Shown here: piece after piece, positions 4,672 to 53,980 of the stretch | How the letters are laid out: every line of letters starts with the position of its first letter | How positions within the stretch are numbered: the stretch's first letter is position 1 | NCBI GenBank assembly: GCA_964353775.1 | Contig: CAYGWB010000002.1 | Location: 69,185 to 133,184, forward strand | Reading direction: 5' to 3' | Source: an uncultured archaeon | GTDB taxonomy: Archaea; Aenigmatarchaeota; Aenigmatarchaeia; Aenigmatarchaeales; JAHLMS01 | Length of the DNA: 64,000 nucleotides | The notes under the pieces: generated by a model | Told to the model about the DNA's origin: nothing | The model's input: only the letters and a program-made list of their open reading frames with translations | Database searches by the model: none | Translations under genes and position numbers: made by a program

Positions 4672-5655
4672 ATGGCTGAGAAAGAGAAAGTGAAGGCTGT
4701 CGCGGATCTGCCGGGCGTCGGTGAGAAGATTGCGGAGAAACTGCACGACTCCGGATACGAGGACATGATGGCTGTTGCGGCCGCCAGTCCAGCCGAAATG
4801 GCCGAGGCGGCCGAGCTCGGGGAAGCGACCGCAGCAAAGATAATTTCTGCCGCGCGTGACGCGCTTGAGATGGGATTCGAGACCGCAACGAAAGTGCTGG
4901 AAAAAAGAGCGAAGGTCGGACACATCTCAACCGCCAGCAAGAACCTGGACAATTTGCTCGGCGGGAAGGGAATCGAGACCGGAGCGACCACGGAGTTCCA
5001 CGGTGCGTTCGGCTCGAGCAAGACACAGATTGCGCACCAACTGTCCGTTATGGTACAAATGCCAGTTGACAAAGGCGGGCTCAACGGAGCCGCCCTCTAC
5101 ATCGATACAGAGGCCACGTTCCGACCTGAAAGAATAAAGCAGATGGCCGAGGCCCTGAAGCTGGACCCGAAGAAGGTGCTGGAGAACATCTACGTCGCAC
5201 GTGCATATAATTCCGATCACCAGACGCTTTTGGCCGTGAAGGCGGGCGACCTGATCAAGGAGAAGAACGTCAAGCTGATTATAGTCGACTCCGTGACAGC
5301 GCTGTTCCGCTCAGATTTCTCAGGTCGAGGCGAACTAGCGCCAAGGCAGCAGAAACTCAACCGCCACCTGCACACATTGCAGAGGCTGGCGGACGTCTAT
5401 AATATTGCGATATATCTGACCAACCAGGTGATGTCCAGGCCGGACGTAATGTACGGCGACCCGACGACGCCGATAGGCGGCCACATCATGGGGCATTTCT
5501 CGACCTTCCGCGTGTACGTGAGAAAGTCGAAGGGCGACACGCGCATAGGCAGGATGATAGACAGCCCGAACCTGCCCGAGGCCGAATGCGTGTTCTGCAT
5601 AAAGCCCGAGGGCGTCCGTGACCCGGAAGAAGACGAGAAGAGAAAGCGAGAGTAG
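4672..5655 (+). CDS. radA: DNA repair and recombination protein RadA
   Basis: N-terminal HhH (LPGVGEKIAEKL), Walker A GAFGSSKTQ and RecA-fold motifs. Start moved to the ATG giving MAEKEK. Confidence 0.93.
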   Translation: MAEKEKVKAVADLPGVGEKIAEKLHDSGYEDMMAVAAASPAEMAEAAELGEATAAKIISAARDALEMGFETATKVLEKRAKVGHISTASKNLDNLLGGKGIETGATTEFHGAFGSSKTQIAHQLSVMVQMPVDKGGLNGAALYIDTEATFRPERIKQMAEALKLDPKKVLENIYVARAYNSDHQTLLAVKAGDLIKEKNVKLIIVDSVTALFRSDFSGRGELAPRQQKLNRHLHTLQRLADVYNIAIYLTNQVMSRPDVMYGDPTTPIGGHIMGHFSTFRVYVRKSKGDTRIGRMIDSPNLPEAECVFCIKPEGVRDPEEDEKRKRE

Positions 5656-5694
5656 CTACAGCTAACCATTTCTAAAACAGAAAAAAAGTGAAAT

Positions 5695-6273
5695 TTATTT
5701 GCGTCCGACCCAGCGCATAGGTTTGATTGTTATATCGGGCGAGTTCTTTGTGTCCGGCCGCTCCTGTGCATCGACATGCTCGCGCCTGACCGTGCCCTTG
5801 CGCGTGTAGACTGTGTATAGCATGTCCATTATGTTGCTTGCAGTAGAACCTATCGTACCTGATATATTGCGAAGGTTTTCAGCTGTGGTCAGAACAGGCC
5901 GCACAGTATCGATATCGATGGCCACACCGTCATCATAATGGACTTCGTCTATCTTTAACCGTAAATCGCCTTCTCCCTTGTAGTAGGAAGGCCGTATGAA
6001 AGAACTTCGGGCTATGTCGTCGAAATCCCAGTTGTTGCGCGGCTGGCCGAGCTCATCCATCCGGGTCGATATCGAAGCCCAGGAAAAGAACTTGTCCTTG
6101 CTCCGCTTTGCCACTGAATATTCGAAGCTTCTCAGCGGTGGCTTGAGTTCCTGGATGTAGAGGGCCTGCCAGGCGCCATGTGCTTCATCATAGCAGGGCG
6201 TCTTTGGATCGTTGAGTTTCACAATAGCCTTGTCGAGCTGTCTTGGTGTCAAAGGCTCGATTGTGATTGGCAT
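5695..6273 (-). CDS. hypothetical protein
   Basis: 192-aa ORF with protein-like composition, probably co-transcribed with the two upstream small genes. Confidence 0.5.
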   Translation of the reverse strand: MPITIEPLTPRQLDKAIVKLNDPKTPCYDEAHGAWQALYIQELKPPLRSFEYSVAKRSKDKFFSWASISTRMDELGQPRNNWDFDDIARSSFIRPSYYKGEGDLRLKIDEVHYDDGVAIDIDTVRPVLTTAENLRNISGTIGSTASNIMDMLYTVYTRKGTVRREHVDAQERPDTKNSPDITIKPMRWVGRK

Positions 6274-8490: not shown

Positions 8491-9570
8491 TTAAGCTGTC
8501 ACGAAAAGCGTGCGCACCTTCGGCGTCAGAGCGTACATGAAGGCCTTGCCTTTCGACTCGCGCTGCACATAGCCTTCGAGCATGAGACGGTGAAGAATAT
8601 TGTTTATCGAGCGGATCGCATGACCCTTGGAGGCGTACGAGCCGCTGACCTGGTCGGCTAAAGCCGTTGGCGTCAGCCAATCGGTCTTGGCCAGCACTTC
8701 CAGGATCTGCCGCTGCTTCCTGGGCAGGTTGGCCACCTGGTTGTCCGTCGGCGGCTTCGGAGCGAACGTGACGACGGGCTCTTCCAGAACAGGCGCGGGC
8801 TCGAACTCGCGGTAGTCGGCCAGGTTCTGGGCGTCTATTTTCTCCAGGTTCTTCTCTATCGCATCGTTAACCAGCTTGTCGGCCAGCTTGAGCACCTCCC
8901 GCGGGAAGCCGCCTGTACGCTGGTAAATGGCTGAAATGGCCTCATCCGTGAACGGCTCGGTCCCTTTCCCGCCCGCGGCCGCTATCCGCTTGGCCATAAG
9001 GTCCTTACTCTCACTTTCCGAGAGTGCGGACAAGGTTATCCTGGTCGTTATTCGCTGGTCGAAGGTCTCCAAAGTGCTTTTGATGTTGCCCTCGAGCGCC
9101 GGCAGACCGGCCACTATAAGGCTCACATTATCAATCTGGTCAACGAGCACGCGCAGCCATTCCAGGACGTCCCGGCTGGTCTCGTGGGCCTCGTCTATAA
9201 GGAAAAGCAACTGAGTTCCGCTGAGCTTCCTGTTGACGTAATTTGGCAAAGTCCAGAGAGTCGGCTTTCCGGAAAACATCTTCTCGAAAAAGCCCAGTCC
9301 GTAAATATCGGTGAAAATCTGGATGAAATCGTCCGGCTTCTGAGGCGGTTTGCTTATGTAAAGCTTGGAGAGGTTCGGATTATTGGTCTCCAGGCGCTTA
9401 AGGAAGGTCGTTTTGCCGCTTCCTGTCGATCCTGTCAGAAGGGCTATCTTGTGCTTGCTCTCAATATGCCTCTTAGCGGCCGTCATCTGCTCATCATAGC
9501 CTGTAAAAAGAGTCGGGTCTATCTTCAAGGTGAACGGATTCTCTCTCCAGCCCCATTTTCCGAACGTCAT
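8491..9570 (-). CDS. ExeA/TniB-like AAA+ ATPase fused to a C-terminal winged-helix DNA-binding domain
   Basis: Has the NPF...P.LF...H....L opening, Walker A GSTGSGKTT, Walker B LLFLIDEAHE, QRIT.R and GGFPR motifs typical of ExeA/AAA_22 proteins. The last ~70 aa look like a MarR-type wHTH. The start codon abuts the repeat array. Confidence 0.75.
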   Translation of the reverse strand: MTFGKWGWRENPFTLKIDPTLFTGYDEQMTAAKRHIESKHKIALLTGSTGSGKTTFLKRLETNNPNLSKLYISKPPQKPDDFIQIFTDIYGLGFFEKMFSGKPTLWTLPNYVNRKLSGTQLLFLIDEAHETSRDVLEWLRVLVDQIDNVSLIVAGLPALEGNIKSTLETFDQRITTRITLSALSESESKDLMAKRIAAAGGKGTEPFTDEAISAIYQRTGGFPREVLKLADKLVNDAIEKNLEKIDAQNLADYREFEPAPVLEEPVVTFAPKPPTDNQVANLPRKQRQILEVLAKTDWLTPTALADQVSGSYASKGHAIRSINNILHRLMLEGYVQRESKGKAFMYALTPKVRTLFVTA

Positions 9571-9575
9571 GACAT

Positions 9576-10030
9576 CACGTGAACATTCACATTGCCTTCA
9601 CTTAGGCGATTTATATTCACGTGAACAAGTATTTAAGTATAAGTGAACTTCACGTGAACATAATGTGAAGATGAACATATATTTTCTAGGATATAAGTGA
9701 AGATTTCGTGAACCAAACGTGATTGTGAGAGTTCGCTTGGGAGTTTGGGCCGGTTTCGAGGGCAAATGTTAGGATCCGGCCGTTGACTGGAAATGAACGA
9801 AAAACTGCGCGTGAACAAAACGTGAAGTTCATTTCATGTTCACACGTTCACGCTATCTTCACGCTATCTTCACGTGAACATGCGTGAAGTTCACGTGAAC
9901 ATAGTTTCAATTGTTAATACAAAGTGAGGTAGAAGTGCGATGTTCACGTAATATTCACGTGAATATGGCGTGAACATCACGTGAAGATGTGAAGGCCGCG
10001 TGAACGATTCGTGAAGGTCTACGTGAATAC
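9576..10030. repeat. Dense array of about 25 CGTGAA(C/G)AT half-sites, including 5 or more perfect TTCACGTGAA palindromes
   Basis: Perfect palindromes counted at 9616-9625, 9649-9658, 9869-9878, 9888-9897 and 9954-9963. Many further CGTGAAC/CGTGAAG/GTGAAGAT units occur in both orientations with irregular spacing. No ORF of 60 aa or more looks protein-like here. Confidence 0.85.
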
Positions 10031-10070: not shown

Positions 10071-10087
10071 ATATAACACTGTTATAT
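10071..10087. repeat. 17-bp palindrome ATATAACA-C-TGTTATAT (copy 1 of the TATAACA-N-TGTTATA family)
   Basis: Perfect dyad, about 40 bp upstream of the ligT start and just right of the CGTGAA array. Confidence 0.7.
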
Positions 10088-10125: not shown

Positions 10126-10674
10126 ATGCGCACGTTCATTGCTGTCGAGGTCTCCGAAGCCTTGAAGCCCAAAATTCTGGCGATTCAGAAGAAAATCGAG
10201 GCTAGCGGAGCGGACATAAAGCTCGTCGAGCCTGAGAACATCCATTACAACCTCAAATTCATAGGCGAAATAGATGATCGGACAGTAGAAAAGACAAAAA
10301 AGGCACTCTCCGAAATATCCTTTCCTGCATTTGACGTCCATATAGCCGGCTTAGGAGCTTTCCCTAGCAAAACCTATATCCGCGTGGTCTGGCTAGGCTG
10401 TCGCCAAGGGACACAGGAACTGACTGCCCTGGCTTCCAGCGTAGAGGAGGCGCTTGCCGGGATAGTCCCGAAGGACGAAAGGCCTTTCACACCTCACCTA
10501 ACGCTCGGTCGTGTAAGCGGAGTAAAAGACAAAGAAGCACTGTCAAAGCTCATGCACGATCTTGAGAACGCTGACATTGGTAAATTCCGCGTTGACAAGC
10601 TCGTATTATTCCAGTCGCAGCTGTCTCCAAAAGGACCTGCGTACATGCCGATACTGACGGTCAACTTGAAGTAG
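10126..10674 (+). CDS. thpR: RNA 2',3'-cyclic phosphodiesterase / 2'-5' RNA ligase (LigT/ThpR, 2H family)
   Basis: Two H-x-(T/N)-x motifs (HYNLKF and HLTLGRV); 182 aa. Confidence 0.75.
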   Translation: MRTFIAVEVSEALKPKILAIQKKIEASGADIKLVEPENIHYNLKFIGEIDDRTVEKTKKALSEISFPAFDVHIAGLGAFPSKTYIRVVWLGCRQGTQELTALASSVEEALAGIVPKDERPFTPHLTLGRVSGVKDKEALSKLMHDLENADIGKFRVDKLVLFQSQLSPKGPAYMPILTVNLK

Positions 10675-11149
10675 AGCGTATTTTGCGTTTAACCTTTTCT
10701 TCCTTTAGGTCCATTAGCCATATTTCATCGGCTTTTTGCATAATACGCCCGATTTTAAGCGATTTATCATATTCTGCACAAATAATTATTCTTCCAAGCG
10801 ATTTTACGGCCTCAATATTCTTGTATATATGCTTCGATGAACTATTCCAACCATCATGATAGTGGCATTCTACAAAGATTGGCCGGCGCTTCCTAATAAC
10901 AATCACGTCTGGCCTGAATTTATGATGTTTGATCCTCTTCTCGATAAGAATCTGTTCTTTTTTGAAGCCCAATCTGTTGAATTCTTTTGCGGCTATCTCT
11001 TTCATCTTCTTGTGTCCGAAGGCCTCATTTTTTATTGTAAACGGTTTGAGAAGCGCCTGATCAGGAGCAAGACCTAATCTTTCATTCTTGATTCTATATA
11101 CCTCTTTTATCGCTTTAATCATCTGATTAAGCGTTTCGTCGTTATTCAT
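10661..11149 (-). CDS. hypothetical protein with a PD-(D/E)xK / Hjc-like nuclease-fold signature (possibly non-canonical)
   Basis: The layout LGF...RPDVIVIR...IFVECHYH resembles the Hjc/restriction-endonuclease core, but the lysine of E-x-K is replaced. The gene is markedly lower in GC than its surroundings. Confidence 0.45.
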   Translation of the reverse strand: MNNDETLNQMIKAIKEVYRIKNERLGLAPDQALLKPFTIKNEAFGHKKMKEIAAKEFNRLGFKKEQILIEKRIKHHKFRPDVIVIRKRRPIFVECHYHDGWNSSSKHIYKNIEAVKSLGRIIICAEYDKSLKIGRIMQKADEIWLMDLKEEKVKRKIRSTSS

Positions 11150-11487
11150 TTGTCCACCTCACGTGGGCTGAAAGCTGTCTGGATAGGCGTTTCCTTGACG
11201 TTTTTAATCAATTCCATGGCTTTCAGAAAACCGCTGAGCTTGATTCCTGGTTTTAGCTTTACCAAGCGTAGTCTGATGGACGGGTCGATATGCGTTTCCT
11301 CTATTGCTGCCGCCAAGTATTTGTCCAGATACCAGCGGACAGTTGCTTCATGAATACCGGTCTGGCGGGCTATGAAAGCTACATGGACCCAGTCATTTCT
11401 TGTAGCAAGAACTGCCCAAATTTTAGTTATTTTTGCGTGGTCCGGGCCTTTGAATGTTGTTCTATCCCGTTTTATTGCATTTTTCAT
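11146..11487 (-). CDS. winged-helix DNA-binding protein
   Basis: 113 aa. Overlaps the downstream nuclease-like gene by 4 bp (ATGA), so the two are probably co-transcribed. Low GC. Confidence 0.5.
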   Translation of the reverse strand: MKNAIKRDRTTFKGPDHAKITKIWAVLATRNDWVHVAFIARQTGIHEATVRWYLDKYLAAAIEETHIDPSIRLRLVKLKPGIKLSGFLKAMELIKNVKETPIQTAFSPREVDK

Positions 11488-11613
11488 TAGTCTATTACTA
11501 AGCTAGTAGTATTTATATCTTAATGTCATAGATGCTCTTTTTAGTCGCTTATAATCCAAAACAAGCAGTTTTGCAGGCTTTCAATATTTATCACACTCAC
11601 GTTGTGCGTGACT

Positions 11614-11628
11614 ATAACAGTGTTATAT
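11614..11628. repeat. 15-bp palindrome TATAACA-G-TGTTATA (copy 2)
   Basis: Perfect dyad. Immediately preceded by a TCACG-N5-CGTGA inverted repeat at 11597-11611. Confidence 0.7.
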
Positions 11629-28251: not shown

Positions 28252-28977
28252 ATGATAGACCAACAGGCGCTGGCGCGCGAGACGCTCGCCAAGCGGATCG
28301 CGGGTGAGATCGTTCTGGGTGATGATGCCGGCAAAGTGATCCAGAAGTGGAGAAACATCTTCAAGATACCGCAGCGGCGTTTGGCCGACGAGATGGGCGT
28401 AATGCCTTCGGTGATAAGCGACTATGAGAACGGCAGGCGCAAGAGCCCTGGAATAAAGGTCGTAAAGAAGATGGTTTCTGCGATGCTGAGCATGGACGAA
28501 AAGATCGGCGGAAAGGTGATAAAGGAGTTCAGCGAGTGGCCGAGCAAATTCGGCCTGTCGGAGGCCGTGCTGGACCTGAAGGAATTTTCCACACCTGTTA
28601 CTGTTAGGGACTTCTGCAAGGCCATGGACGCTGCCGTGGTCGCCAGAGAGGACCTGGCGGATAACAAACTGCACGGATACACAGTCATAGACAGCATGAA
28701 GGCGATAACCGGCATTCCGCCACTAGAGCTGGTCAAGCTGTACGGGCTGACGACAGAAAGGGCGTTAATATTTACAGGCGCACATAGCGGAAAATCCTCG
28801 ATGGTGGCAATAAAGGTGACAAACCTCAGGCCGGGCCTGGTTATACTGCACGGTGCGGAAGGGGTGGACGATTTGGCTAAAAGAATAGCGGAAATAGAAG
28901 AAATACCGCTGGCTGTCACAAGGATCAGGAACGTCGAGGACATTCTGAACGCATTAAAGAAGAGTTTCAGCGGCTAG
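28252..28977 (+). CDS. HTH (XRE-like) transcriptional regulator with C-terminal domain
   Basis: The RRLADEMGVMPSVISDYENGRR segment is a helix-turn-helix of the XRE type. Confidence 0.6.
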   Translation: MIDQQALARETLAKRIAGEIVLGDDAGKVIQKWRNIFKIPQRRLADEMGVMPSVISDYENGRRKSPGIKVVKKMVSAMLSMDEKIGGKVIKEFSEWPSKFGLSEAVLDLKEFSTPVTVRDFCKAMDAAVVAREDLADNKLHGYTVIDSMKAITGIPPLELVKLYGLTTERALIFTGAHSGKSSMVAIKVTNLRPGLVILHGAEGVDDLAKRIAEIEEIPLAVTRIRNVEDILNALKKSFSG

Positions 28978-29038: not shown

Positions 29039-29055
29039 TTATAACATTGTTATAA
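29039..29055. repeat. 17-bp palindrome TTATAACA-T-TGTTATAA (copy 3)
   Basis: Perfect dyad in the AT-rich region upstream of orc1/cdc6. Confidence 0.7.
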
Positions 29056-29135: not shown

Positions 29136-29152
29136 TTATAACAGTGTTATAA
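29136..29152. repeat. 17-bp palindrome TTATAACA-G-TGTTATAA (copy 4)
   Basis: Perfect dyad, 97 bp centre-to-centre from copy 3, flanking a very AT-rich stretch. Confidence 0.7.
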
Positions 29153-29298: not shown

Positions 29299-30501
29299 GT
29301 GACGTACATGACACAAAAACTACAGGAAATATTCACACAGTTCATGGAGAACAAGCCGATTTTCACCAACCGTTCTGCCCTTACAATAGCCTTTACGCCG
29401 GAGACGATACCGCACAGGGAGAAGCAGATAGCCGATCTTGGCAGGATACTGGCGCCGGTCCTCAGGGGAGGCAGGCCGTCCAACATTTTCATCTATGGAC
29501 GGACCGGCACGGGCAAATCGCTTGTCGCCAGGTTCGTCGGTTCCGAGCTCTGCAAGGCGGCAAACGGACAGAACGTAAAACTGGTCTATATTAATTGCAA
29601 GATGAAGAAGGCGGCTGACACCGAATACAGGCTGCTGGCCGGTCTGCTCAAGGAGCTTGGCAGGAGCGTCCCTTTCACCGGTCTTCCTACAGACCAGCTC
29701 TATCACACGCTTTTTGAGGTGCTCGATGCAAAGGAGCAGACCGTGATTCTGATCATAGATGAGATTGATGCGCTGGTCGCCAAGACTGGGGACGAGATAC
29801 TCTATAACCTGACAAGGGCGAACGGCGAGCTGAAGAAGGCAAAGCTGGCCATGATAGGAATAACGAACGACCTCGGGTTTGTGGAAAGGCTCGACCCAAG
29901 GGTAAAATCCAGCCTTTCGGAAGAGGAGATGATATTCCCGCCTTACAATGCCGTTCAGTTGCAGGACATACTCAAGCAGAGGGCCGTGATGGCCTTTGCG
30001 CCCGGCGTGCTCGGTGACGGCGTCATCGAGAAGGCGGCCGCGTTGGCTGCGCAGGAGCATGGCGACGCCAGACGGGCACTGGACCTGCTAAGGGTATCCG
30101 GCGAGCTGGCCGAGCGGGTCGCAGAAGCTTCTGTCACTGTCGTACAGGTGGATGTCGCCCAGGACAAGATCGACCAGGACCGCGTGCTGGAGATAGTAAA
30201 GTCGCAACCAAGGCAGAGCCAGGCCGTTCTCTGGGCTGTGCTGCAATCATCCGAGAACACTCGAAATATCGAGAGCGGTGCGGTCTTCGACCTGTACAAC
30301 AATATATGCAATAATCATGGGCTGAAGCCTTTGACACAGAGGCGTGTCAGCGACCTGGTCGCTGAGCTGGATATGTTCGGAATCATATCAGCGAAGGTCA
30401 TTTCAAGGGGCAGAGGAGGCAGAACAAGGATTATAAACATTAATTTGTCAGATTTCACGCTTAAAAAGCTCAAAAGCACTATGCTTGAGATATTTCTATG
30501 A
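29299..30501 (+). CDS. cdc6: Orc1/Cdc6 replication initiator
   Basis: Walker A GRTGTGKS, Walker B ILIIDEIDAL, sensor TND, and a C-terminal winged helix. GTG at 29299, with a possible ATG start at 29308. Confidence 0.92.
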   Translation: MTYMTQKLQEIFTQFMENKPIFTNRSALTIAFTPETIPHREKQIADLGRILAPVLRGGRPSNIFIYGRTGTGKSLVARFVGSELCKAANGQNVKLVYINCKMKKAADTEYRLLAGLLKELGRSVPFTGLPTDQLYHTLFEVLDAKEQTVILIIDEIDALVAKTGDEILYNLTRANGELKKAKLAMIGITNDLGFVERLDPRVKSSLSEEEMIFPPYNAVQLQDILKQRAVMAFAPGVLGDGVIEKAAALAAQEHGDARRALDLLRVSGELAERVAEASVTVVQVDVAQDKIDQDRVLEIVKSQPRQSQAVLWAVLQSSENTRNIESGAVFDLYNNICNNHGLKPLTQRRVSDLVAELDMFGIISAKVISRGRGGRTRIININLSDFTLKKLKSTMLEIFL

Positions 30502-30515
30502 TTAATGGGTGATAA

Positions 30516-31499
30516 CATATCAACCAAAGGATACAACAATTAGTCGCTTCAGGACTGATTATAGAGGAAAATGCGGTTAAAAAGCTGTCTAATTTAGATG
30601 AAACCTTATTAAACAAGGTATTAGATAAAATAAAAACAGATAAGGTTAGTGTTTTAACAGAATCGTTCCTTTTCAATCTTTTGTACCCGCCAGTTAGAGT
30701 CATAAGACAATATGAAAATAAAAGCATAAACAACATACAAGAATGGACAAACACGCTCAATTTTAAATATAACGCATTACAAAGCATACTAATTGAAAAA
30801 AGTGACATAAAGAACACTATTTCAATCAAAAACTTAAGCTCAGAATACTCTACCATAATAGGCTTAGTAAAACAGGTTAAGGAAGGTCCAGAAAGAGTTA
30901 TAATAGATATGGAGGATATGACTGCCCATGTTTCTGTTTCTATGTCAAAAAGCGCCTTTAATGGTAAAATAATGGCAGATGATGTCGTAGCTGTTACGGG
31001 AAGGCTTGTTGGAAACATATTCGAGGCCGATACTCTGGTCTGGCCGGACATTCCTCTGAGAACAGCCACCAAGGGCTACGGGAAGATAGCACTGCTTGCG
31101 AATTGCCAAATAGACGATAAAATCGCCCAGAGCATACAAACGGCAGATTATGTGCTCGCTCATAATTGCACCGGGTGGGAGCCTGTTGCGGCAAAGGGCG
31201 GTGCGCAATGGGTAGTCACGGACGCGAACGCTTCCGGCGATCCGAACATGGTCAGCACCAAGATGCCATGTCTGCTAGAGGTAGACGGGCTCGTCGTACT
31301 AGTCTACTTCGGTCCTGAACAGGCGGCCGACATACTTCGCAGACGATATATTGTCGTCAATGGTTCCGACTTCCTGATAGACACCGTTCCGGACCTGGTA
31401 TTCACATCAACGAACGATGCCTACAATTACAAAGGCATTACGATAGTCGGAAAAGGAACGGTCGATGCGGCCACATGTGATGTCAAACCGTTCGATTAA
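30516..31499 (+). CDS. uncharacterised protein between cdc6 and polB (OB-fold-like segment plus C-terminal domain), start unresolved
   Basis: An open frame begins 14 nt after the cdc6 stop but holds no ATG, GTG or TTG before the TTG at 30681. The N-terminus is AT-rich and the remainder is GC-normal. Ends 50 bp before polB. Confidence 0.5.
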   Translation, partial: HINQRIQQLVASGLIIEENAVKKLSNLDETLLNKVLDKIKTDKVSVLTESFLFNLLYPPVRVIRQYENKSINNIQEWTNTLNFKYNALQSILIEKSDIKNTISIKNLSSEYSTIIGLVKQVKEGPERVIIDMEDMTAHVSVSMSKSAFNGKIMADDVVAVTGRLVGNIFEADTLVWPDIPLRTATKGYGKIALLANCQIDDKIAQSIQTADYVLAHNCTGWEPVAAKGGAQWVVTDANASGDPNMVSTKMPCLLEVDGLVVLVYFGPEQAADILRRRYIVVNGSDFLIDTVPDLVFTSTNDAYNYKGITIVGKGTVDAATCDVKPFD

Positions 31500-45870: not shown

Positions 45871-46842
45871 CTACCGAATAAATACTTCGTTCGTCTGATA
45901 TTTTTTAATATCACTCTTTTTGCTGTAAGCAGATTTATTTGTTAGAATCATTTTCAAGACCTTTATCATTTTTTGTCGATAGTAATGGCAGTTCCAGCAT
46001 AGTTCGTTCTTACCGATAGTTCCTGTTAGCAGACGCTCACGTAAAGCCTTCCATTTCGGGCTTGTCCATGCCTCCTTAATGCTCATGTCGTTTACATTGC
46101 CTACGCAGTTCTTTTGATAATAGTCAAAACAGCACGGAATAATTGAGCCGTCAGCGAATACGAAACAATGCCTGAAAGGCATCTTACATGGAGTTTTCAA
46201 TATGCCACCTGCTCGATTTATTAAATGCGGGTAATTCGTCTGCCCTGCCCAATCATGTGTTTCAAAATATGCGAACCTTGAATTGTCATGCATGTGTGGT
46301 CGAATAAAATCAATATATTCCTTTTGATCGTTATTTGAGAAAAACAACACACCGATATCTACCTGAATGTTCTTTCCTTTTGTTTGGTCAAGAAAGTCAG
46401 CTATTTTTTGCCATGTTTGCTTGTTCTGTTGCTTTTCAAATAGTGATATGAAGGTCATACCCGAATCGATAATCTTTTTTCCAATTTCTTTTGTGAGCAG
46501 AGAACCATTGCTCGAGAAATCTATTTTTGTGTTAGGCATCTTTTTTCTGACTATTCTTATGAAGTCGAATATTTCAGAATTCAAAAGAGGTTCACCAAAC
46601 TGGTGTAGTGCGATCTCCTTGATGTGTGGATTTTCTTTCTTTACCTCATCTATTATTTTGTTGAACATCTCTTTGTTCATCCATATTTCTGGTCGTCTGT
46701 CAGGGTTGTTGTTCGGACAGAACGGGCAGGACAGATTGCACTTGCTGTTGAGTTCTATTCCAATATATTCTGGGAAAGGTATATCTGAGAACTGTTGCTT
46801 GCCTATGCTCGTAGCCATTATTAGTTTTTTTCTTAGGGACAT
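45871..46842 (-). CDS. radical SAM / SPASM-domain protein
   Basis: CNLSCPFCPN cluster motif and a Cys-rich C-terminal SPASM region. Markedly AT-rich. Confidence 0.8.
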   Translation of the reverse strand: MSLRKKLIMATSIGKQQFSDIPFPEYIGIELNSKCNLSCPFCPNNNPDRRPEIWMNKEMFNKIIDEVKKENPHIKEIALHQFGEPLLNSEIFDFIRIVRKKMPNTKIDFSSNGSLLTKEIGKKIIDSGMTFISLFEKQQNKQTWQKIADFLDQTKGKNIQVDIGVLFFSNNDQKEYIDFIRPHMHDNSRFAYFETHDWAGQTNYPHLINRAGGILKTPCKMPFRHCFVFADGSIIPCCFDYYQKNCVGNVNDMSIKEAWTSPKWKALRERLLTGTIGKNELCWNCHYYRQKMIKVLKMILTNKSAYSKKSDIKKYQTNEVFIR

Positions 46843-46939
46843 TTTATTCGCTCCATTATAATTATATGTTGTTATAAGTTATAGCTTATCAGCTAGTTAA
46901 TATTTAAAAAGCTAGCGACAAACATATTAGGCGAGCTAT

Positions 46940-48457
46940 ATGGACGTCAAAACTATTGAAAAAAATATAGAGATGCTTTTCATAGTATTCCTGCTATTGT
47001 TAGGAACCTACTATGTAGTGTTGGCATACAGTACCCAGATGCTAGGTGAGGACGAGGCTGTTTATTACGGAGCATCGAACGAGTTTGCACAAGGAACCTA
47101 CAGGGCATTTTTACCGGCTGATAAACCATTCGTGAGTCCGGTTCTTATGTCGCTTACTGCCACACCGTTCTTTCTAATTTTTGGTTCGTCCTTAGGAGCA
47201 TTGAAGGCAGTGTCTGCATTATTCGGAATACTGTCATTATTCATAGTTTTTTTGATAGGGAAAAAAATTAATGTATATTACGGAATTTTCGCGGCAATCC
47301 TTCTGCTGTCAATTCAGATGTTTACACAATTCATGATGCTGGCATATGTCGAAACACCAATAACGTTCTTTTCCGCACTGTTAATATATTGTTATCTGAC
47401 TTTGGACAATACAAAAAAAGCGGTTCTCACAGGAGCGATACTGAGCTTGGCTTTTTATACAAAGGCCAGTGCCTTGGTGCTGGTTGCCGTGCCATTTGTT
47501 TACGGAGTTTTCCTATGGCTCTATGAAAAAAACAAGCAGTATGTCAAATTTGCCGTAGTATCGATATTGACGTTTGTAGCGTTAGTAGCACCATTCGCTA
47601 TTAGAAACATTTTATTGTATCATTATCCCTTTGTCGAAGGATTGAATGTACTTTTCGGAGCTTCACCTCTTCAATGGCCAACATGGTTATCTGATGTATT
47701 CAAAACGGTTTCTCCGGTGCGGCCTGGTATGGAAATGTATATATCCTCATTTGGATGGTTGGCCATAGTGCTCGGCATATTTGGTTTTGGATGGTTGGCC
47801 ACAAACTGGAAACATGAAAAAAAGGAACGTGATCTTCTCATCATGCAACTTTTGACAATATTTTTCTTCATAGCAGTCTTCAACATTGTATATTTTTTTG
47901 GAACCTTTCCACTTGAATCTCGATACCTATCTATTATATTTCCATCAATTGTGCTACTCGGTGGTTTCTTCATCTGGAAAATTAATCAATGGAACAAATG
48001 GCTGATACTATTAATAGTACCAATTTTGCTATTTAGTACCTATGTCAGTGCCACAACGGTGTTTTCAACACATGGTTCGCAACGATATCCAGCAGACTAC
48101 ATAGATGCGTTGCATTGGATAAAGGCCAATACGACCTCTGACGCTTTGCTTTTCACGACATATGGCGGCAGTACGAAATACTTCGGTGAACGAGAGAGCA
48201 TATGGACATGGGAGGTTAAGGAGTTTCCTGAACTCATGAACTCAAACAACGGAACCTACATTGCAGATACGTTAAAACATTATAATATTAGCTACATCTT
48301 GATATGGCGTGCGACTGTGGCACAGAATTATATCATTCCCGAGAGCAACCTTTGGGGCGTCTTTACATATAATTTTGTAGATGTTGTCAGCAAGGATACC
48401 GAAGACTTTGAAACAGTTTACTCCAACCAGGACAACTGGATACTTAAGCTGAAGTGA
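46940..48457 (+). CDS. GT-C fold membrane glycosyltransferase (ArnT/PMT-like)
   Basis: About 11 N-terminal transmembrane helices plus a soluble C-terminal domain. Lacks the WWDYG motif, so not AglB. Confidence 0.55.
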   Translation: MDVKTIEKNIEMLFIVFLLLLGTYYVVLAYSTQMLGEDEAVYYGASNEFAQGTYRAFLPADKPFVSPVLMSLTATPFFLIFGSSLGALKAVSALFGILSLFIVFLIGKKINVYYGIFAAILLLSIQMFTQFMMLAYVETPITFFSALLIYCYLTLDNTKKAVLTGAILSLAFYTKASALVLVAVPFVYGVFLWLYEKNKQYVKFAVVSILTFVALVAPFAIRNILLYHYPFVEGLNVLFGASPLQWPTWLSDVFKTVSPVRPGMEMYISSFGWLAIVLGIFGFGWLATNWKHEKKERDLLIMQLLTIFFFIAVFNIVYFFGTFPLESRYLSIIFPSIVLLGGFFIWKINQWNKWLILLIVPILLFSTYVSATTVFSTHGSQRYPADYIDALHWIKANTTSDALLFTTYGGSTKYFGERESIWTWEVKEFPELMNSNNGTYIADTLKHYNISYILIWRATVAQNYIIPESNLWGVFTYNFVDVVSKDTEDFETVYSNQDNWILKLK

Positions 48458-48519
48458 ACATCCTACACGTTTAAATAGTTCAAACCGACGTTTTGATAAT
48501 TATAGGGCTAGTGATTTGG

Positions 48520-49461
48520 ATGAAACAGGAAAAGATACTGATAACAGGCGGAGCGGGCTATCTGGGATCGATAGTAACAGAGTATTTCCTATCGAAAGGT
48601 TATGATGTCACGGTATATGACAATCTACTTTATAATCAAACCTCCCTATTCAACCTGTGTTATCATAAAAATTTTCACTTTGTATACGGGGATGTAAGGA
48701 ATCACGATCTGCTTGGAAAGATGATTGAAAAGGCTGATATCATATTCCCGCTTGCTGCGATAGTCGGGGCACCGGCATGTGAAAAGGCGCCGGACGTGAC
48801 GATTGCAGTAAATCAAAAGTCCATAGAGTGGTTAGCCAAACAAATAAGGCCGAACCAGAAAGTAGTCTTTCCGACAACTAACAGCGGATATGGCATAGGG
48901 CAGAAAGATATACATTGCACCGAGGAGACTCCACTAAAACCAATATCATTGTATGGTGTAACCAAAGTTGCGGCTGAAAAAGCGCTATTAGACACTGGAA
49001 ATGCGGTTACATTTCGTCTCGCAACAGTGTTCGGTTTTTCGCCACGTATGCGTCTCGACCTGCTGGTCAATGATTTCGTCTACAAAGCATTCAAGGACAA
49101 ATATATAGTAATGTTCGAGAAAGATTTCAAGCGTAACTTCTTGCACATACGCGATGTGCCAAGGCTCTTCGAACACGCAATAAATAATTATGACAAAATG
49201 AAGGGACAGACATTCAATGCTGGACTACCAGATGCGAACCTATCGAAGGAGGAACTGACACTGCTCATAAAGAAGTTCGTACAGGACTTCTACATAACCT
49301 GCTCGGAAATAAACAAGGACCCTGACAAAAGGAACTACATAATTTCGAACGACAAACTACTCGAGACAGGCTTTAAGTTCCAACACGGTCTTGAAGATGG
49401 TATAGTAGAGCTGCTCAAAGGTTATGCGATTCTGCGTGACAACCAATACAAAAACATATAG
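48520..49461 (+). CDS. NAD-dependent sugar epimerase/dehydratase (SDR family)
   Basis: TGGAGYLGS Rossmann motif; start moved to the ATG giving MKQEKIL. Confidence 0.8.
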   Translation: MKQEKILITGGAGYLGSIVTEYFLSKGYDVTVYDNLLYNQTSLFNLCYHKNFHFVYGDVRNHDLLGKMIEKADIIFPLAAIVGAPACEKAPDVTIAVNQKSIEWLAKQIRPNQKVVFPTTNSGYGIGQKDIHCTEETPLKPISLYGVTKVAAEKALLDTGNAVTFRLATVFGFSPRMRLDLLVNDFVYKAFKDKYIVMFEKDFKRNFLHIRDVPRLFEHAINNYDKMKGQTFNAGLPDANLSKEELTLLIKKFVQDFYITCSEINKDPDKRNYIISNDKLLETGFKFQHGLEDGIVELLKGYAILRDNQYKNI

Positions 49462-49469
49462 GCGAGAAC

Positions 49470-50420
49470 ATGAATTATAAGACACCGTTGTTGATTACAG
49501 GAGCTACAGGATTCATCGGTACGAACCTACAGGAGTCGCTACGCGATCGTGGCATAACGGATTTCGTTGCGCTTGGTTCGGAGCACTTCGATCTGACGGA
49601 ACAGACGCAAGTTCGAGCAATGTTCAAGAAATACAACCCGGAGAAGGTCATACATTTGGCCGCCTATGTCGGCGGGATACTGGCAAACAAGAGCTATCCG
49701 GCAGATTTCTGCTATCAGAACTTGATAATAAACACGCTAACTATACACGAGGCCAAGAACGCAGACGTGAAAAAGTTCCTGACGCTCATGGGCGGTTGCA
49801 GCTATCCGACGCATGCGCCGAACCCCATCAAAGAAGAATACATGTGGGACGGCTATCCGCAGAAGGAGAGCGCGCCCTACTCGGTCGCCAAGAAGATGGC
49901 AATCGTCCAGCTGAACAGCTACAGGCAGCAGTACGGATTCAACGGAGTCATGCTAATACCCGGGAACGTCTACGGACCACATGACAATTATTCCCTAAAC
50001 AATTCTCATGTAATACCTGGCCTCATACACAAATACTACAACGCGAAGAAGAACAACGAACCGCAGGTTGTGGTTTGGGGAACCGGCAACCCCACTCGCG
50101 ATTTCATATATGTGAGAGACGCGACCGACTGTATAGCAAAGGCATTTGAGGATTATAACGGAGAACAACTGATAAACATCTCCACGGGTGTGCGCACGCC
50201 GATAAAGGAACTGGTGAACACGATAGCTAAACACACCAAATATCAAGGCAAGATAGTTTGGGACACCACGAAGCCGGACGGACAGATGGAAAAGATATTT
50301 GATGTCACGCGAATGAAAGAAATACTCAAATTCACACCGAAGACGACGCTTGATGAGGGCATCAAGAAGACAGTAGCTTGGTTCGAAAATAATATGTCAT
50401 TAGGAAAGGTACGCATTTAG
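49470..50420 (+). CDS. fcl: GDP-L-fucose synthase-like epimerase/reductase
   Basis: TGATGFIG, then HLAAYVGGI..N..YPADF and other blocks typical of GDP-4-keto-6-deoxymannose epimerase/reductase. Confidence 0.65.
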   Translation: MNYKTPLLITGATGFIGTNLQESLRDRGITDFVALGSEHFDLTEQTQVRAMFKKYNPEKVIHLAAYVGGILANKSYPADFCYQNLIINTLTIHEAKNADVKKFLTLMGGCSYPTHAPNPIKEEYMWDGYPQKESAPYSVAKKMAIVQLNSYRQQYGFNGVMLIPGNVYGPHDNYSLNNSHVIPGLIHKYYNAKKNNEPQVVVWGTGNPTRDFIYVRDATDCIAKAFEDYNGEQLINISTGVRTPIKELVNTIAKHTKYQGKIVWDTTKPDGQMEKIFDVTRMKEILKFTPKTTLDEGIKKTVAWFENNMSLGKVRI

Positions 50421-50429
50421 GTTCTTTAC

Positions 50430-51098
50430 ATGAAAAAGTATGAGCACGTTGTTGCATATCGCATACCATATTCAATAAGAAGAATGGGTTTATGGATTTC
50501 TCATCCCGGGTTTGAAAAAAACCTAAAAAAACAACTTAATGATTGTGAAACTGTTTTAGATTTGGGATGTGGTCCGTCGTCACCAATAAGACCTTTTTCA
50601 AAAAGGTTTTACTCTGTTGGTGTCGATGCCTTTAGTAATTATATAAAGATTAGTAAAAAACATCGGATACACAATTCGTATCAGCTTATGAATATAATGG
50701 ACATCGATAAAAAATTTAAACCAAAATCATTTGACGGAGTAATTCTTATAGATGTTTTAGAACATTTAGACAAAGAAAGTGGTAAAATTATATTAAAAAA
50801 GGCTGAGCGAATTGCAAAGAAAAAGATTATAATTTCAACTCCAAATGGATTCGCTGCACAAAGTTTATATGATAAAAATCCATTACAACTACATAGATCC
50901 GGTTGGACTCCTCAAGAGTTAAAAAATAGAGGATATTGTGTGAATGGGTTACTTGGTTTGAAATGGATGCGCGGTGAATATGGTACGATTCGTTGCAAAC
51001 CATGGGTTTTTTGGATTTTGGTATCCTTCGTATCAGAGTTTTATGTATGGAATAGACCAGAAAAGGCAAGACAATTATTTTGCGTTAAAAATATTTAG
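50430..51098 (+). CDS. class I SAM-dependent methyltransferase
   Basis: VLDLGCGPS motif I; AT-rich. Confidence 0.7.
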   Translation: MKKYEHVVAYRIPYSIRRMGLWISHPGFEKNLKKQLNDCETVLDLGCGPSSPIRPFSKRFYSVGVDAFSNYIKISKKHRIHNSYQLMNIMDIDKKFKPKSFDGVILIDVLEHLDKESGKIILKKAERIAKKKIIISTPNGFAAQSLYDKNPLQLHRSGWTPQELKNRGYCVNGLLGLKWMRGEYGTIRCKPWVFWILVSFVSEFYVWNRPEKARQLFCVKNI

Positions 51099-51210
51099 TG
51101 ATTTGATATGAAATTTATAAACGAGAGATTGATACTACGAATTAGATTTTTCGAAGAGAACCTCTCATTTTTTAAGATGTACGAGACTAGGTACAATATA
51201 GGCGGTCCTC

Positions 51211-51870
51211 TTGGCTAAAGAAATAAATATAATCAATAAAATAAAAAATATTGTCTTTCCAACTGAAAGGGTTGTTCCAGGCGTTGCTCCTAATGAGCTA
51301 TTTCAAGAGCACATAACCAAATACGAATGGGTAAGCAAATATGTCAATGGCAAGACGGTTCTAGACATCGCTTGTGGTACTGGCTACGGGTCTTCTCTAC
51401 TTCTTTTTCGAGGTGCCAAACGCATATATGGTGGTGATATATCTGAGGAGGCAATAAAATTTGCAAAAGAACACTATAGGAACATAGATTTTCGTGTCAT
51501 GAATGCCGAGCAGCTACCATTCGAGGATAATTTTTTTGATGTGATAGTTTCTCTAGAAACTCTAGAACATCTCTCTAACCCTGAAAAATTTGTTGGTGAA
51601 GCGAAACGTTTGTTGAAGACTGGAGGAGTTCTAATAATTTCTACACCAGCAATGCGTGTTCGTAATCCATTTCATGTTAAAGAATTCTTTACAAAGAATG
51701 AACTGGAAGAAATGTTATCATCCTTTTCAAATATAGAATTCTTCGGCCAGTTCAGAAAAATATCACGTATAAAAAGATTGTTGAGGCTATTAGGCCTTAT
51801 AAGTTTAGATTATAGCATATCACCATATTCACCAAACCATATGTTTATGATTGTTGTGTGCATAAAGTGA
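51211..51870 (+). CDS. class I SAM-dependent methyltransferase
   Basis: VLDIACGTGYGS motif I. Confidence 0.75.
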   Translation: MAKEINIINKIKNIVFPTERVVPGVAPNELFQEHITKYEWVSKYVNGKTVLDIACGTGYGSSLLLFRGAKRIYGGDISEEAIKFAKEHYRNIDFRVMNAEQLPFEDNFFDVIVSLETLEHLSNPEKFVGEAKRLLKTGGVLIISTPAMRVRNPFHVKEFFTKNELEEMLSSFSNIEFFGQFRKISRIKRLLRLLGLISLDYSISPYSPNHMFMIVVCIK

Positions 51871-51876
51871 TGATAT

Positions 51877-52635
51877 ATGAAAATATTCATATTGGGTCAT
51901 AAAGGGTTTGTCGGGAGCGGCATATCTGACTACTTCACATCCAAAGGCGTCGAGTTCGAAGGCATAGACAGAAGCAACTATGGTAGTCTTGTTGGTAAGG
52001 AATGTGACCTTTTCATAAACGTGGCTGGAAGCTCAAAGAAGAGGCTGGCGACCACTGATCCAAAGATAGATTTTGCGGCAAACGTTGTCGATACCGCAAA
52101 TTCCATATTCGATTTTAAGGCGAAAAAATACGTCTACCTATCGACGATAGACGTCTACAACAATGTATCATCGAAACCGAAGGAGATAACAATCATAGAG
52201 CCTTTGAAGCTCAGCAATTACGGCTTTGATAAATATTTTGCCGAGCAGATAGTTAGGAAATACTGCCCGAGTTGGATCATAGTCAGAGCGGCTGGAATGG
52301 TAGGCAGAAACATGAGCAAGAACGCTGTTTTCGATATTCTCAATTTCGGCAAGACGTTCGTGTCTCCGAAATCAGAATATCAGTACATGAACACTCTTGA
52401 TCTTGGCAGAATCTTACATCAACTTTCAGAAAAGACAGAAAATGACATTTTTAATGTTTGCGGGGACGGGGCAATAGCTGTCGAGGAGATAGCAAAAATA
52501 GCTGGCGTCACATTGCCAAAGGAGTGCTACAAACTTCCAGCCGAAAAATATGAAGTCGATGTATCAAAAGCATCAAAATACTGTAAAATACCTAAGACGC
52601 GAGACACAATTATTGACTTTATGAAAAACAGGTAA
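51877..52635 (+). CDS. NAD(P)-dependent sugar reductase/epimerase (RmlD-like SDR)
   Basis: N-terminal ILGHKGFVGS Rossmann motif. Confidence 0.6.
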   Translation: MKIFILGHKGFVGSGISDYFTSKGVEFEGIDRSNYGSLVGKECDLFINVAGSSKKRLATTDPKIDFAANVVDTANSIFDFKAKKYVYLSTIDVYNNVSSKPKEITIIEPLKLSNYGFDKYFAEQIVRKYCPSWIIVRAAGMVGRNMSKNAVFDILNFGKTFVSPKSEYQYMNTLDLGRILHQLSEKTENDIFNVCGDGAIAVEEIAKIAGVTLPKECYKLPAEKYEVDVSKASKYCKIPKTRDTIIDFMKNR

Positions 52636-52639
52636 TACG

Positions 52640-53980
52640 ATGAAAAACGTTGATCAGTCTTTTAATGTAGAGATAATTTCACCTCTCAAGAAACAGTCTG
52701 ACATATGCGTAGTGATAATAACCTTTGCCAGGGTCGATTATGTTATTGACATTGTGAACAGGCTACAGAACCAGACATACAAACCTGACATTCTAGTGAC
52801 AGACAACAGTCCGGACTCAAAAATAGCTATGGAACTTAAGAAAAAATTTCCAAACATAGGAATAATAGAGATAAAGGGCGGTAATGTAGGACCCGCAGGC
52901 ACATTTTTTGTTGGCGAAAAGTTCGCATATGACGCTGGTTACAAATACATAATCATAGCTGATGATGATGCTTTTCCGGAGTCAAAGAAACTTATAGAAG
53001 TTGCAGTCAAGACGCTTGAGAAAGATACCGCAGCCAGTGTCGTGATTTCATCTCAAATCAACAATACGAAAACATATGACATAGCCCAGCTCAGTGTCAT
53101 ACGACGCGAGGTGTTTGAAAAAATAGGGTTCACGTTTGCACCAATATTTAGGGTTGGTGAAGACGTAGACTTTACACGTCGAGTGAGACTTGCCGGATTT
53201 AAGATTGTACACAGCCCTGAACTTTATAGACATCCACCAATGTTTATTTCAGGTCTGTCTCCAAGACAGACATATTATCTTATTCGAAATCATTGTTTTG
53301 GTTCTTGTTCAAATATAAATAAGATAACAAGTCCAACAGTAATATTCCCATTACTACTTATTGGATATTTTTGGGTACATCTGTTAGAGAAACGAAGCGG
53401 TTTTAGGAGAGCAATACAGCTAGCGCTGTCAGATTTTATTCATCTTAATTTTGGGCCAGTATGCGCAGAAGCCAATGTCAGTCAGTCGCACTGCCTTAAT
53501 AGAACCATATCTGGCGAGCAGCTTGCTGAAGCGCCAGCAAACACCAATAATTATACATTGATTGCGCGTTCGGATACAATAATTAATATGATGAAGCCTG
53601 ACTCCCGCAAACGGATAACTGATGTCTGTAATTTAGATATTTCTGGTGCCTATGAGGCTAAAAAGAGAAAATATCTAAAGACGCTGAAACTTTTCAGATA
53701 CAGCGGTCGAAATGTAATTTTAAACGAGCACATACCGCCGCCATTGCTGTATCTCTTCAGGTCCGTCAGCATATACGATTTTAATAAAGATAGATTTATG
53801 TCACTTACGAAAGAAAGAGGGACATTTTCCAGAACACTATGTCTAATAATAACGTTGTTTGGTTCTATAGCCCTGTTGTCATTAATGTTGCCTATGATGT
53901 TCATCTGGCACATTTTATTCTTGCCATATGATTTCTTCGAAAGAAAGTCAAAAGAGCTTAAAATAATATACGAGAAATAA
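52640..53980 (+). CDS. glycosyltransferase family 2 with C-terminal membrane segment
   Basis: GT-A fold with a DDDA motif, followed by a C-terminal hydrophobic segment. Confidence 0.65.
   Translation: MKNVDQSFNVEIISPLKKQSDICVVIITFARVDYVIDIVNRLQNQTYKPDILVTDNSPDSKIAMELKKKFPNIGIIEIKGGNVGPAGTFFVGEKFAYDAGYKYIIIADDDAFPESKKLIEVAVKTLEKDTAASVVISSQINNTKTYDIAQLSVIRREVFEKIGFTFAPIFRVGEDVDFTRRVRLAGFKIVHSPELYRHPPMFISGLSPRQTYYLIRNHCFGSCSNINKITSPTVIFPLLLIGYFWVHLLEKRSGFRRAIQLALSDFIHLNFGPVCAEANVSQSHCLNRTISGEQLAEAPANTNNYTLIARSDTIINMMKPDSRKRITDVCNLDISGAYEAKKRKYLKTLKLFRYSGRNVILNEHIPPPLLYLFRSVSIYDFNKDRFMSLTKERGTFSRTLCLIITLFGSIALLSLMLPMMFIWHILFLPYDFFERKSKELKIIYEK

Follow-up and report, generated by a model that had tools for sequence, protein, structure and literature searches.

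A putative helix-turn-helix gene and an accessory gene of predicted PD-(D/E)xK fold in an apparently vertically inherited operon of Aenigmatarchaeota-type archaea

Mrr-type (type IV) restriction endonucleases combine a winged helix-turn-helix (wHTH) with a nuclease of the PD-(D/E)xK fold, and arrangements in which a small gene accompanies a nuclease gene are known from type II toxin–antitoxin (TA) operons, from the C-protein/endonuclease pairs of restriction–modification (R-M) systems and from the cyanobacterial XisH/XisI genes. In the TA and R-M pairs, a small helix-turn-helix (HTH) gene comes first, overlaps the start of the nuclease gene and is associated with a palindromic operator; in XisH/XisI, a small PD-(D/E)xK-fold protein is encoded beside a small partner gene. 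In the canonical layout of the PD-(D/E)xK superfamily, one acidic residue marks the beginning of strand 2 and another lies within strand 3, and active enzymes in which the signature Lys is replaced or has migrated are documented (PMC3424549). The locus described here recalls each of these systems in part, a palindromic candidate operator included. It lies in a stretch of 64,000 nucleotides (64 kb) from an uncultured archaeon (GenBank assembly GCA_964353775.1, contig CAYGWB010000002.1), referred to below, as a whole, as the window, and consists of two overlapping genes, one for a wHTH-like protein and one for a protein of a family here called ECH. The explanation to which we give an even chance is that of an autoregulated, translationally coupled and apparently vertically inherited operon, in which a conserved wHTH protein is joined by an accessory nuclease of a new PD-(D/E)xK-fold family with an ExH motif, the whole resembling a split Mrr enzyme. 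Both genes had been singled out in an earlier annotation made from the letters of the window (the sequence-only reading), whose coordinates for the two open reading frames (ORFs), on the minus strand, are exact. The elements of the pair are the following.

Positions 11146 to 11487, minus strand: wHTH gene (113 aa), gene 1 of the putative operon, recognized as an ORF with orthologues.
Positions 10661 to 11149, minus strand: nuclease-fold gene (162 aa; ECH family), gene 2 of the putative operon, recognized as an ORF with family members P0009-P0020.
Positions 11146 to 11149, minus strand: stop/start overlap ATGA of the wHTH and ECH genes, read from the sequence.
Positions 11155 to 11160, minus strand: Shine–Dalgarno (SD)-like GAGGTG, located in the 3′-terminal part of the wHTH gene and 6 nt ahead of the ECH start codon, read from the sequence.

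Homologues with conserved columns were found for each ORF, and both are real genes. The 4-bp ATGA overlap, from which translational coupling had been proposed, is present, and the position of the SD-like GAGGTG, 6 nt before the second start codon, fits such coupling.

The ECH family is small. An exhaustive HMMER scan over 1.8 billion representatives (E <= 1e-10) yielded nine members including the query, the eight homologues being 33-45% identical to it, and a further profile search added three more; a word-indexed homologue search with the ECH protein returned the query alone. In an alignment of 11 sequences, D81, E94, C95, H96, D99, W101, Y109, C124, E142 and W144 are invariant and H46, K50 and P80 nearly so, the aligned homologues being just ~32-43% identical to the window protein. 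The motifs RPDVIVIR and IFVECHYH occupy residues 79-86 and 91-98, respectively, of the 162-aa protein. At the level of sequence profiles, the ECH protein reaches 15 bits with PDDEXK_11 (PF20472; E 0.021), below the 23.7-bit gathering threshold, and one of the 11 members matches this profile. The NCBIfam scan gave no assignment for the ECH protein, the Mrr_cat profile (PF04471, 21-bit cut-off) did not match it, the XisH profile of Pfam (PF08814) matched no member of the family, and comparison of the ECH family profile with PDB sequences gave nothing significant.

Fold-level evidence comes from structure prediction. A single-sequence AlphaFold2 (AF2) model of the 162-aa protein was unusable (predicted local distance difference test score, pLDDT, of 40), and a model built from the 11-sequence alignment was used instead (pLDDT 78.9; predicted template modelling score, pTM, 0.65). 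It comprises a helix (44-59), three strands (67-69, 82-84 and 91-96), a second helix (108-116) and a fourth strand (120-126), and this modelled alpha-beta-beta-beta-alpha-beta order, with a mixed four-stranded sheet, corresponds to a restriction-endonuclease-like core, which would place the family in the PD-(D/E)xK superfamily at the fold level only. Foldseek matches in the PDB included XisH (2inb), the restriction-like endonuclease of the R2 retrotransposon, R.BspD6I, AF1548, AF2093 and Bax1, and further Hjc/Hje, RecU, VRR-NUC and Can2, with E-values from 3e-3 to 0.1; the top match was 2inb (E 3.2e-3, template modelling (TM) scores 0.46/0.55), and the Hjc/Hje matches had TM scores of 0.31-0.36 on the query. 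In BFVD, phage endonuclease-like, VRR-NUC and resolvase-like proteins were retrieved with E-values down to 2e-4. Almost all structural neighbours with a description, in both collections, are PD-(D/E)xK-fold proteins. Structure prediction had been proposed as a check on the nuclease fold of the 162-aa protein, and such a fold was predicted.

The predicted core of ~120 aa is comparable to that of the minimal PD-(D/E)xK members (Hjc/Hje, XisH, VRR-NUC and the small subunit of R.BspD6I), from which the ECH proteins differ by an additional N-terminal helix and a conserved LGLxxDQ segment. As in the superfamily at large, an Asp stands at the start of strand 2 and a Glu-x-(basic residue) motif in strand 3. 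Indeed, D81 immediately precedes strand 82-84 and E94-C95-H96 lie within strand 91-96, so that D81, E94 and H96 are predicted to take the canonical catalytic positions, with side chains that probably cluster in the model. The sequence-only reading of a restriction-endonuclease-like core with His in place of Lys agrees with both the AF2 fold and the placement of the D...ExH residues. The canonical (D/E)xK motif itself is absent, since the position of the signature Lys is held by the invariant His96. Moreover, the invariant C95, D99, W101, Y109, C124, E142 and W144 fall outside any described family motif. Because replacement or migration of the Lys is documented in active enzymes, the ECH family could still be catalytic, and because His96 and its neighbours are invariant across homologues of ~31-45% identity, the site looks maintained rather than decayed. 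The same invariance speaks against the earlier suggestion that the nuclease-like protein may be inactive. With regard to XisH, the top structural match, the resemblance does not extend to the partner, which is here an upstream HTH protein and not a downstream XisI, nor to taxon, genomic context or sequence-level similarity.

The protein encoded by gene 1 is better conserved. Its orthologues, 45-66% identical, are found in Aenigmatarchaeota metagenome-assembled genomes (MAGs), several of them labelled Candidatus Aenigmatarchaeota, and in metagenomes, and their alignment has 28 invariant columns, among them I-x-E-x-TVRWYLD. Profile matches all lie below threshold: HTH_IclR for 8/10 members (best E 0.0014), HTH_24 for 4/10 and HTH_29 for 5/10; the wHTH family profile found no match among PDB sequences. 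A reasonable reading is that gene 1 encodes an HTH or winged-helix DNA-binding protein, and the winged-helix assignment of the sequence-only reading thus stands as an HTH/wHTH-like protein at the level of weak profile similarity, mostly to HTH_IclR. An identical wHTH protein (P0006) is also encoded on JBHIEE010000119.1 (L003 / L021), an 8-kb contig binned as 'Candidatus Aminicenantia bacterium', whose gene order is the same as that of the Aenigmatarchaeota contig JBHIDO010000001.1; this assignment is probably a binning error in a public MAG.

Throughout the lineages from which an ECH gene was retrieved, nine in all, the wHTH gene stands directly upstream of it, and the upstream proteins are all orthologous. 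These lineages (L numbers) are listed here.

The window
L009
L010/L011/L026
L012
L013-L015
L016/L017
L018/L019
L023
L027-L029 (wHTH gene represented by its 3′ end, where the contig begins)

In the relatives, the overlap measures 1-26 bp or is replaced by a 10-bp gap, and most lineages have an SD-like GAGGTG, GGAGGTG or AGAGGT ahead of the second start codon (e.g. L009, L012, L013 and L016). The sequence-only reading would have been abandoned had the pair not been conserved as neighbours elsewhere; the two genes are adjacent in nine lineages and usually overlap. Their surroundings are likewise constant: an AAA_22 ATPase gene, an intergenic repeat array, the wHTH gene, the ECH gene, an OB-fold gene, ligT and a ribonucleotide reductase gene follow one another, with RadA and RPA-like genes also near the locus in relatives. 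No copies were found in plasmids, phages or IMG/VR. In PADLOC-DB v2, the ECH family had no match and the wHTH family resembled mad1 over just 25 residues, at the level of an HTH (E 4e-4 to 7e-4). The proposal of a known defence system or a defence island is thus not supported; the neighbours are RadA, RPA, ligT and ribonucleotide reductase. A literature search on an Aenigmatarchaeota origin or on this gene pair found nothing relevant. Selfish or variable elements also occur around the locus in relatives: a free-standing LAGLIDADG gene occupies positions 3805-4557 of L001, between the AAA_22 gene and the repeat array, and an intein with LAGLIDADG is present in the ribonucleotide reductase gene (L011 11511-12335; L013 2788-6063).

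The association between the two proteins is best seen where the intact ECH gene is missing. In L001, L004 and L006, the wHTH gene is found without it, the proteins being 54-60% identical to the window wHTH, and tblastn detected no trace of an ECH gene in these three lineages; conservation of the wHTH protein without any nuclease gene implies that it has a nuclease-independent function. In L022, from which the ECH gene is also absent, a 209-aa fusion carries the wHTH as its C-terminal half and a canonical Mrr_cat domain (PF04471; E 4.2e-5, 24.1 bits vs a cut-off of 21) with an intact E...GVDF...VEVK as its N-terminal half. The same Mrr_cat-wHTH fusion occurs in L024/L025, followed there by a frameshift-interrupted ECH gene: a +1 frameshift falls within a ATAATAATAAT run (ATA-rich) at 940-975 of L024 and in the same region of L025, two contigs from different samples. 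This split could mean that the gene is truly a pseudogene, or could stem from an artefact at a slippery site or from a phase-variable switch.

One wHTH protein is thus combined with two types of PD-(D/E)xK nuclease, ECH in trans and Mrr_cat in cis, and the trans partner is lost or decayed where the cis partner exists. Homology of the ECH family to the fused Mrr_cat domains (L022, L024) was considered and rejected, the hhalign probability being below 1%, and the absence of detectable sequence homology points to non-orthologous replacement. Nothing else argues as strongly for joint action of the two window proteins as this pattern of replacement, which fits DNA-binding and catalytic subunits better than an inhibitor and its toxin. 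In the L022 and L024/L025 fusions, the same wHTH is joined to Mrr_cat within one chain, as in Mrr, but in the order Mrr_cat then wHTH, the reverse of classical Mrr; in the window, unlike in Mrr, each function has a polypeptide of its own and the nuclease does not belong to Mrr_cat.

The fusions also bear on the view, which we consider unlikely, of a type II TA-like module that has been domesticated and fixed in the chromosome, with a nuclease toxin and a wHTH protein acting as antitoxin and autorepressor. Some features would suit it: a gene for a small putative DNA-binding protein comes first and, after a 4-bp overlap, a ~160-aa nuclease-fold gene second, a conserved palindrome lies at the promoter, and both genes are AT-rich. 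The ECH gene is also patchily distributed and fast-evolving (34-69% identity among relatives vs 41-88% for wHTH), and in L001 a weak PIN-like ORF (5635-6078; E 0.0023, below the cut-off) takes the same place between the wHTH and OB-fold genes. The putative antitoxin is, however, better conserved than the toxin, in contrast to type II TA and R-M C-protein pairs, and the HTH partner persists alone in three lineages devoid of a nuclease gene, where it is still clearly constrained. Fusion of the wHTH to a catalytically intact Mrr_cat in two lineages suits a DNA-targeting partner better than an inhibitor. Finally, TA-style mobility was not observed: all contexts (9/9) are at one chromosomal locus, with no plasmid, phage or viral-contig (IMG/VR) copies and no PADLOC match. 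As regards R-M systems, no methyltransferase gene was found in the neighbourhood of the pair in the window or in any related locus.

Persistence of the wHTH gene, with or without the ECH gene, can also be taken to mean that it encodes a plain transcription factor and that ECH is an unrelated, dispensable passenger in a variable downstream slot, for instance a structure-specific nuclease of DNA repair or recombination like Hjc, Hje or Bax1, or else a fold that has lost its activity and serves a non-catalytic role, with no physical cooperation between the two, a possibility we regard as rather unlikely. It would agree with the lineage-dependent content of the wHTH-ligT interval (OB-fold, FHA-like, PIN-like and unknown small genes), with the presence of Hjc, Hje, RecU and Bax1 among the structural neighbours and with the replication/repair character of the surrounding genes (RadA, RPA-like, ribonucleotide reductase). 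Yet no ECH gene was encountered apart from a wHTH gene, its position being either overlapping or <=10 bp downstream with an internal SD-like element, and the coincidence of two independent wHTH-nuclease fusions with loss or decay of ECH is hard to explain without a functional link. Membership in Hjc is not borne out at the sequence level either, the Hjc profile (PF01870) matching 1/11 members with an E-value of 0.12.

Two putative control elements lie upstream of the wHTH gene.

Positions 11495 to 11509, no strand assigned: palindrome CTACTA-GCT-TAGTAA (minus-strand reading), candidate operator, recognized by its conserved register.
Positions 11511 to 11518, minus strand: TATA-box-like ATATAAAT, ~25-30 nt upstream of the wHTH start codon, read from the sequence.

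The palindrome is the sole such site in the 64 kb window, and an equivalent one is found upstream of the start codon of the wHTH gene (or of the fusion) in 14/14 lineages, ~22 nt before that codon. Its consensus is (T/C)TACTA-N3-TAGTAA, then TAGA, and the right arm TAGTAATA is invariant in 11/11 aligned lineages. It lies ~10 nt downstream of the TATA-like box, leaving 4-9 nt to the ATG; in the register of the window box, relatives carry TTTAAATA or TTATATA. To judge from its sequence and spacing, ATATAAAT would be an archaeal promoter element giving rise to a near-leaderless transcript. An RNA hairpin as the role of the palindrome was not supported, with no compensatory changes and weak predictions (-2.5 to -7.8 kcal/mol). 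These two features mean that conservation operates at the sequence level, as would be expected for a protein-binding DNA site overlapping the transcription start, and the palindrome is put forward as a candidate operator for autorepression by the wHTH protein.

Base composition was the starting point of the proposal that the pair had been acquired horizontally. The AT-richness on which it relied is confirmed: GC and GC at third codon positions (GC3) are 0.37/0.40 for the ECH gene and 0.45/0.46 for the wHTH gene, compared with 0.50/0.57 for ligT and 0.50-0.57/0.66-0.80 for three ABC genes, and GC3 is ~0.70 in most long ORFs of the window. Acquisition as a low-GC cassette, or in a variant form exchange of this locus for that of an AT-rich relative by homologous replacement, would account for this contrast with neighbouring genes, which recurs in the GC-richer L018 and L007, and it could draw on the fact that most relatives are genomes of 30-37% GC in which the pair matches its surroundings. 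We nevertheless hold it to be highly improbable. The chromosomal position and gene order are conserved in every relative, there are no copies in plasmids, phages or IMG/VR, no mobile-element genes were seen among the ORFs neighbouring the pair, and no flanking repeats are specific to it, TATAAC palindromes (described below) being independent of the ECH gene. Furthermore, the nearest relative of the window is L007 both by wHTH (63%) and by ligT (69%), which is congruent, and L007/L008 retain a frameshifted, truncated ECH remnant between wHTH and ligT; this decayed remnant places the ECH gene in the common ancestor of the L007 and window lineages. The pair is thus apparently a clade-specific operon at a fixed chromosomal site, vertically inherited and not a recent import, and its AT-richness in the GC-richer lineages (window, L018 and L007), where it stays AT-rich, may reflect weak GC-ward pressure on these genes. 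Elsewhere in the window, other low-GC stretches were noticed, an 8-kb block at 45871-53980 and the ORFs 176-706 and 30479-31051, with GC of 0.32-0.42 and GC3 of 0.24-0.48 vs ~0.70 elsewhere; as foreign or surface-structure islands, they are more plausible than the wHTH-ECH pair.

On its two sides, the pair is flanked by ligT and by an ABC-2 permease operon (Pfam, ABC-2 permease E 6.8e-46), and palindromes of a second kind occur in both directions.

Positions 10126 to 10674, plus strand: ligT (2′-5′ RNA ligase / cyclic phosphodiesterase family), identified by Pfam LigT_PEase (E 2.6e-30) and by synteny.
Positions 11613 to 11627, no strand assigned: palindrome TATAACAGTGTTATA, 126 nt upstream of the wHTH start codon, abutting the stop codon of the ABC-2 permease gene.
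Positions 10072 to 10086, no strand assigned: second copy of this palindrome, lying ~40 nt ahead of ligT.

The ligT gene is convergent with the ECH gene and overlaps its 3′ end by 14 bp. The palindrome TATAACACTGTTATA (TATAAC-N3-GTTATA) has 9 strand-matches in the window vs 0.05 expected. Both copies that had been described as bracketing the pair are present, but what they bracket is ligT plus the pair. In L004, L009, L010, L018 and L024, similar TATAAC-N3-GTTATA copies are found ahead of the wHTH gene, and in L007 and L022 the same palindrome precedes ligT. A role as insertion borders was rejected, since in relatives these palindromes stand upstream of ligT or wHTH regardless of the ECH gene; TATAAC-N3-GTTATA is a conserved intergenic element and not an insertion border, and it may be the site of a clade-wide regulator. 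Further copies are found in the window at 29040-29054 and 29137-29151, 97 nt apart in the intergenic region between the ORFs 28252-28977 and 29308-30501, and a weaker one at 23171. An Rfam scan of window positions 1-64000 gave no family at gathering score, tRNA included.

A dense TTCACGTGAA / CGTGAAG repeat array, with many units spaced 11 nt, extends over window positions 9570-10020, where it fills the intergenic region upstream of a gene for an AAA_22 ATPase with a C-terminal wHTH (8491-9570, minus strand). It is kept in sequence and position in all relatives examined (L001 4570-4850, L006 6360-6715, L010 5160-5575 and L012 3890-4230) and could serve as an origin of replication or as a binding array of centromere-like type. 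GC skew was uninformative as origin evidence at the scale of the window, and identification of the AAA_22 neighbour as Orc1/Cdc6 was not supported, its best matches being the ExeA-like TIGR03015 and MuB. A more far-reaching idea, which we regard as a long shot, is that the wHTH protein is a clade-wide DNA-binding factor beside a candidate origin (the 11-nt-phased CGTGAAG array) and recruits interchangeable PD-(D/E)xK nucleases, ECH in trans and Mrr_cat in cis, to perform a task tied to the chromosome, for instance the processing of DNA near the origin or the discrimination of self from non-self, ECH then using a previously undescribed Asp/Glu/His (plus Cys) active-site variant.

Returning to the operon of a wHTH protein and an accessory nuclease, its working can be pictured as follows. 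The wHTH protein would repress its own promoter through TTACTA-N3-TAGTAA, located between the TATA-like box and the start codon, and ECH would be translated by coupling, via the ATGA overlap and the internal SD-like GAGGTG. In the ECH protein, Asp81 and Glu94 would occupy metal-binding positions, with the invariant His96 in place of the catalytic Lys. The two proteins would act as one unit, with wHTH ensuring DNA binding and control and ECH phosphodiester cleavage, in the manner of an Mrr-type nuclease made of two chains. The nuclease partner would be accessory, as it is lost or decayed in several lineages. As to the role of cleavage, restriction-like action on foreign or modified DNA is our leading guess.

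Several points weigh against this picture. No Pfam family is reached at cut-off by the ECH family, and the structural matches are at the fold level only, with TM scores of 0.3-0.55 and no PDB match at E <= 1e-3. His at the position of Lys could mean a different chemistry or a non-catalytic role, for instance as a ligand-binding or dimerisation domain, and the HTH assignment of gene 1 relies on sub-threshold profile matches. The invariant right arm of the promoter palindrome, together with TAGA, could be a core promoter, initiator or 5′ untranslated region element, or the site of another factor. Physical cooperation is deduced from just two fusion lineages, and the low GC3 of both genes, in L018 and L007 as well as in the window, is not explained by vertical descent alone.

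The finding is a modest one, which opens no long-standing question and does not challenge current understanding. It defines two families that lack annotation: one of PD-(D/E)xK fold, in which ExH is invariant and which represents a variant of the active site in a very well known superfamily, and a strongly conserved HTH family whose candidate operator is preserved to an unusual degree. It also corrects the earlier reading of the locus, in that low GC is here no sign of a mobile defence cassette. Replacement of the trans nuclease by a fused Mrr_cat amounts to a natural experiment that links both proteins functionally and leads to testable predictions. Both families are seen just in Aenigmatarchaeota-type DPANN archaea, a clade whose gene content is largely uncharacterised.

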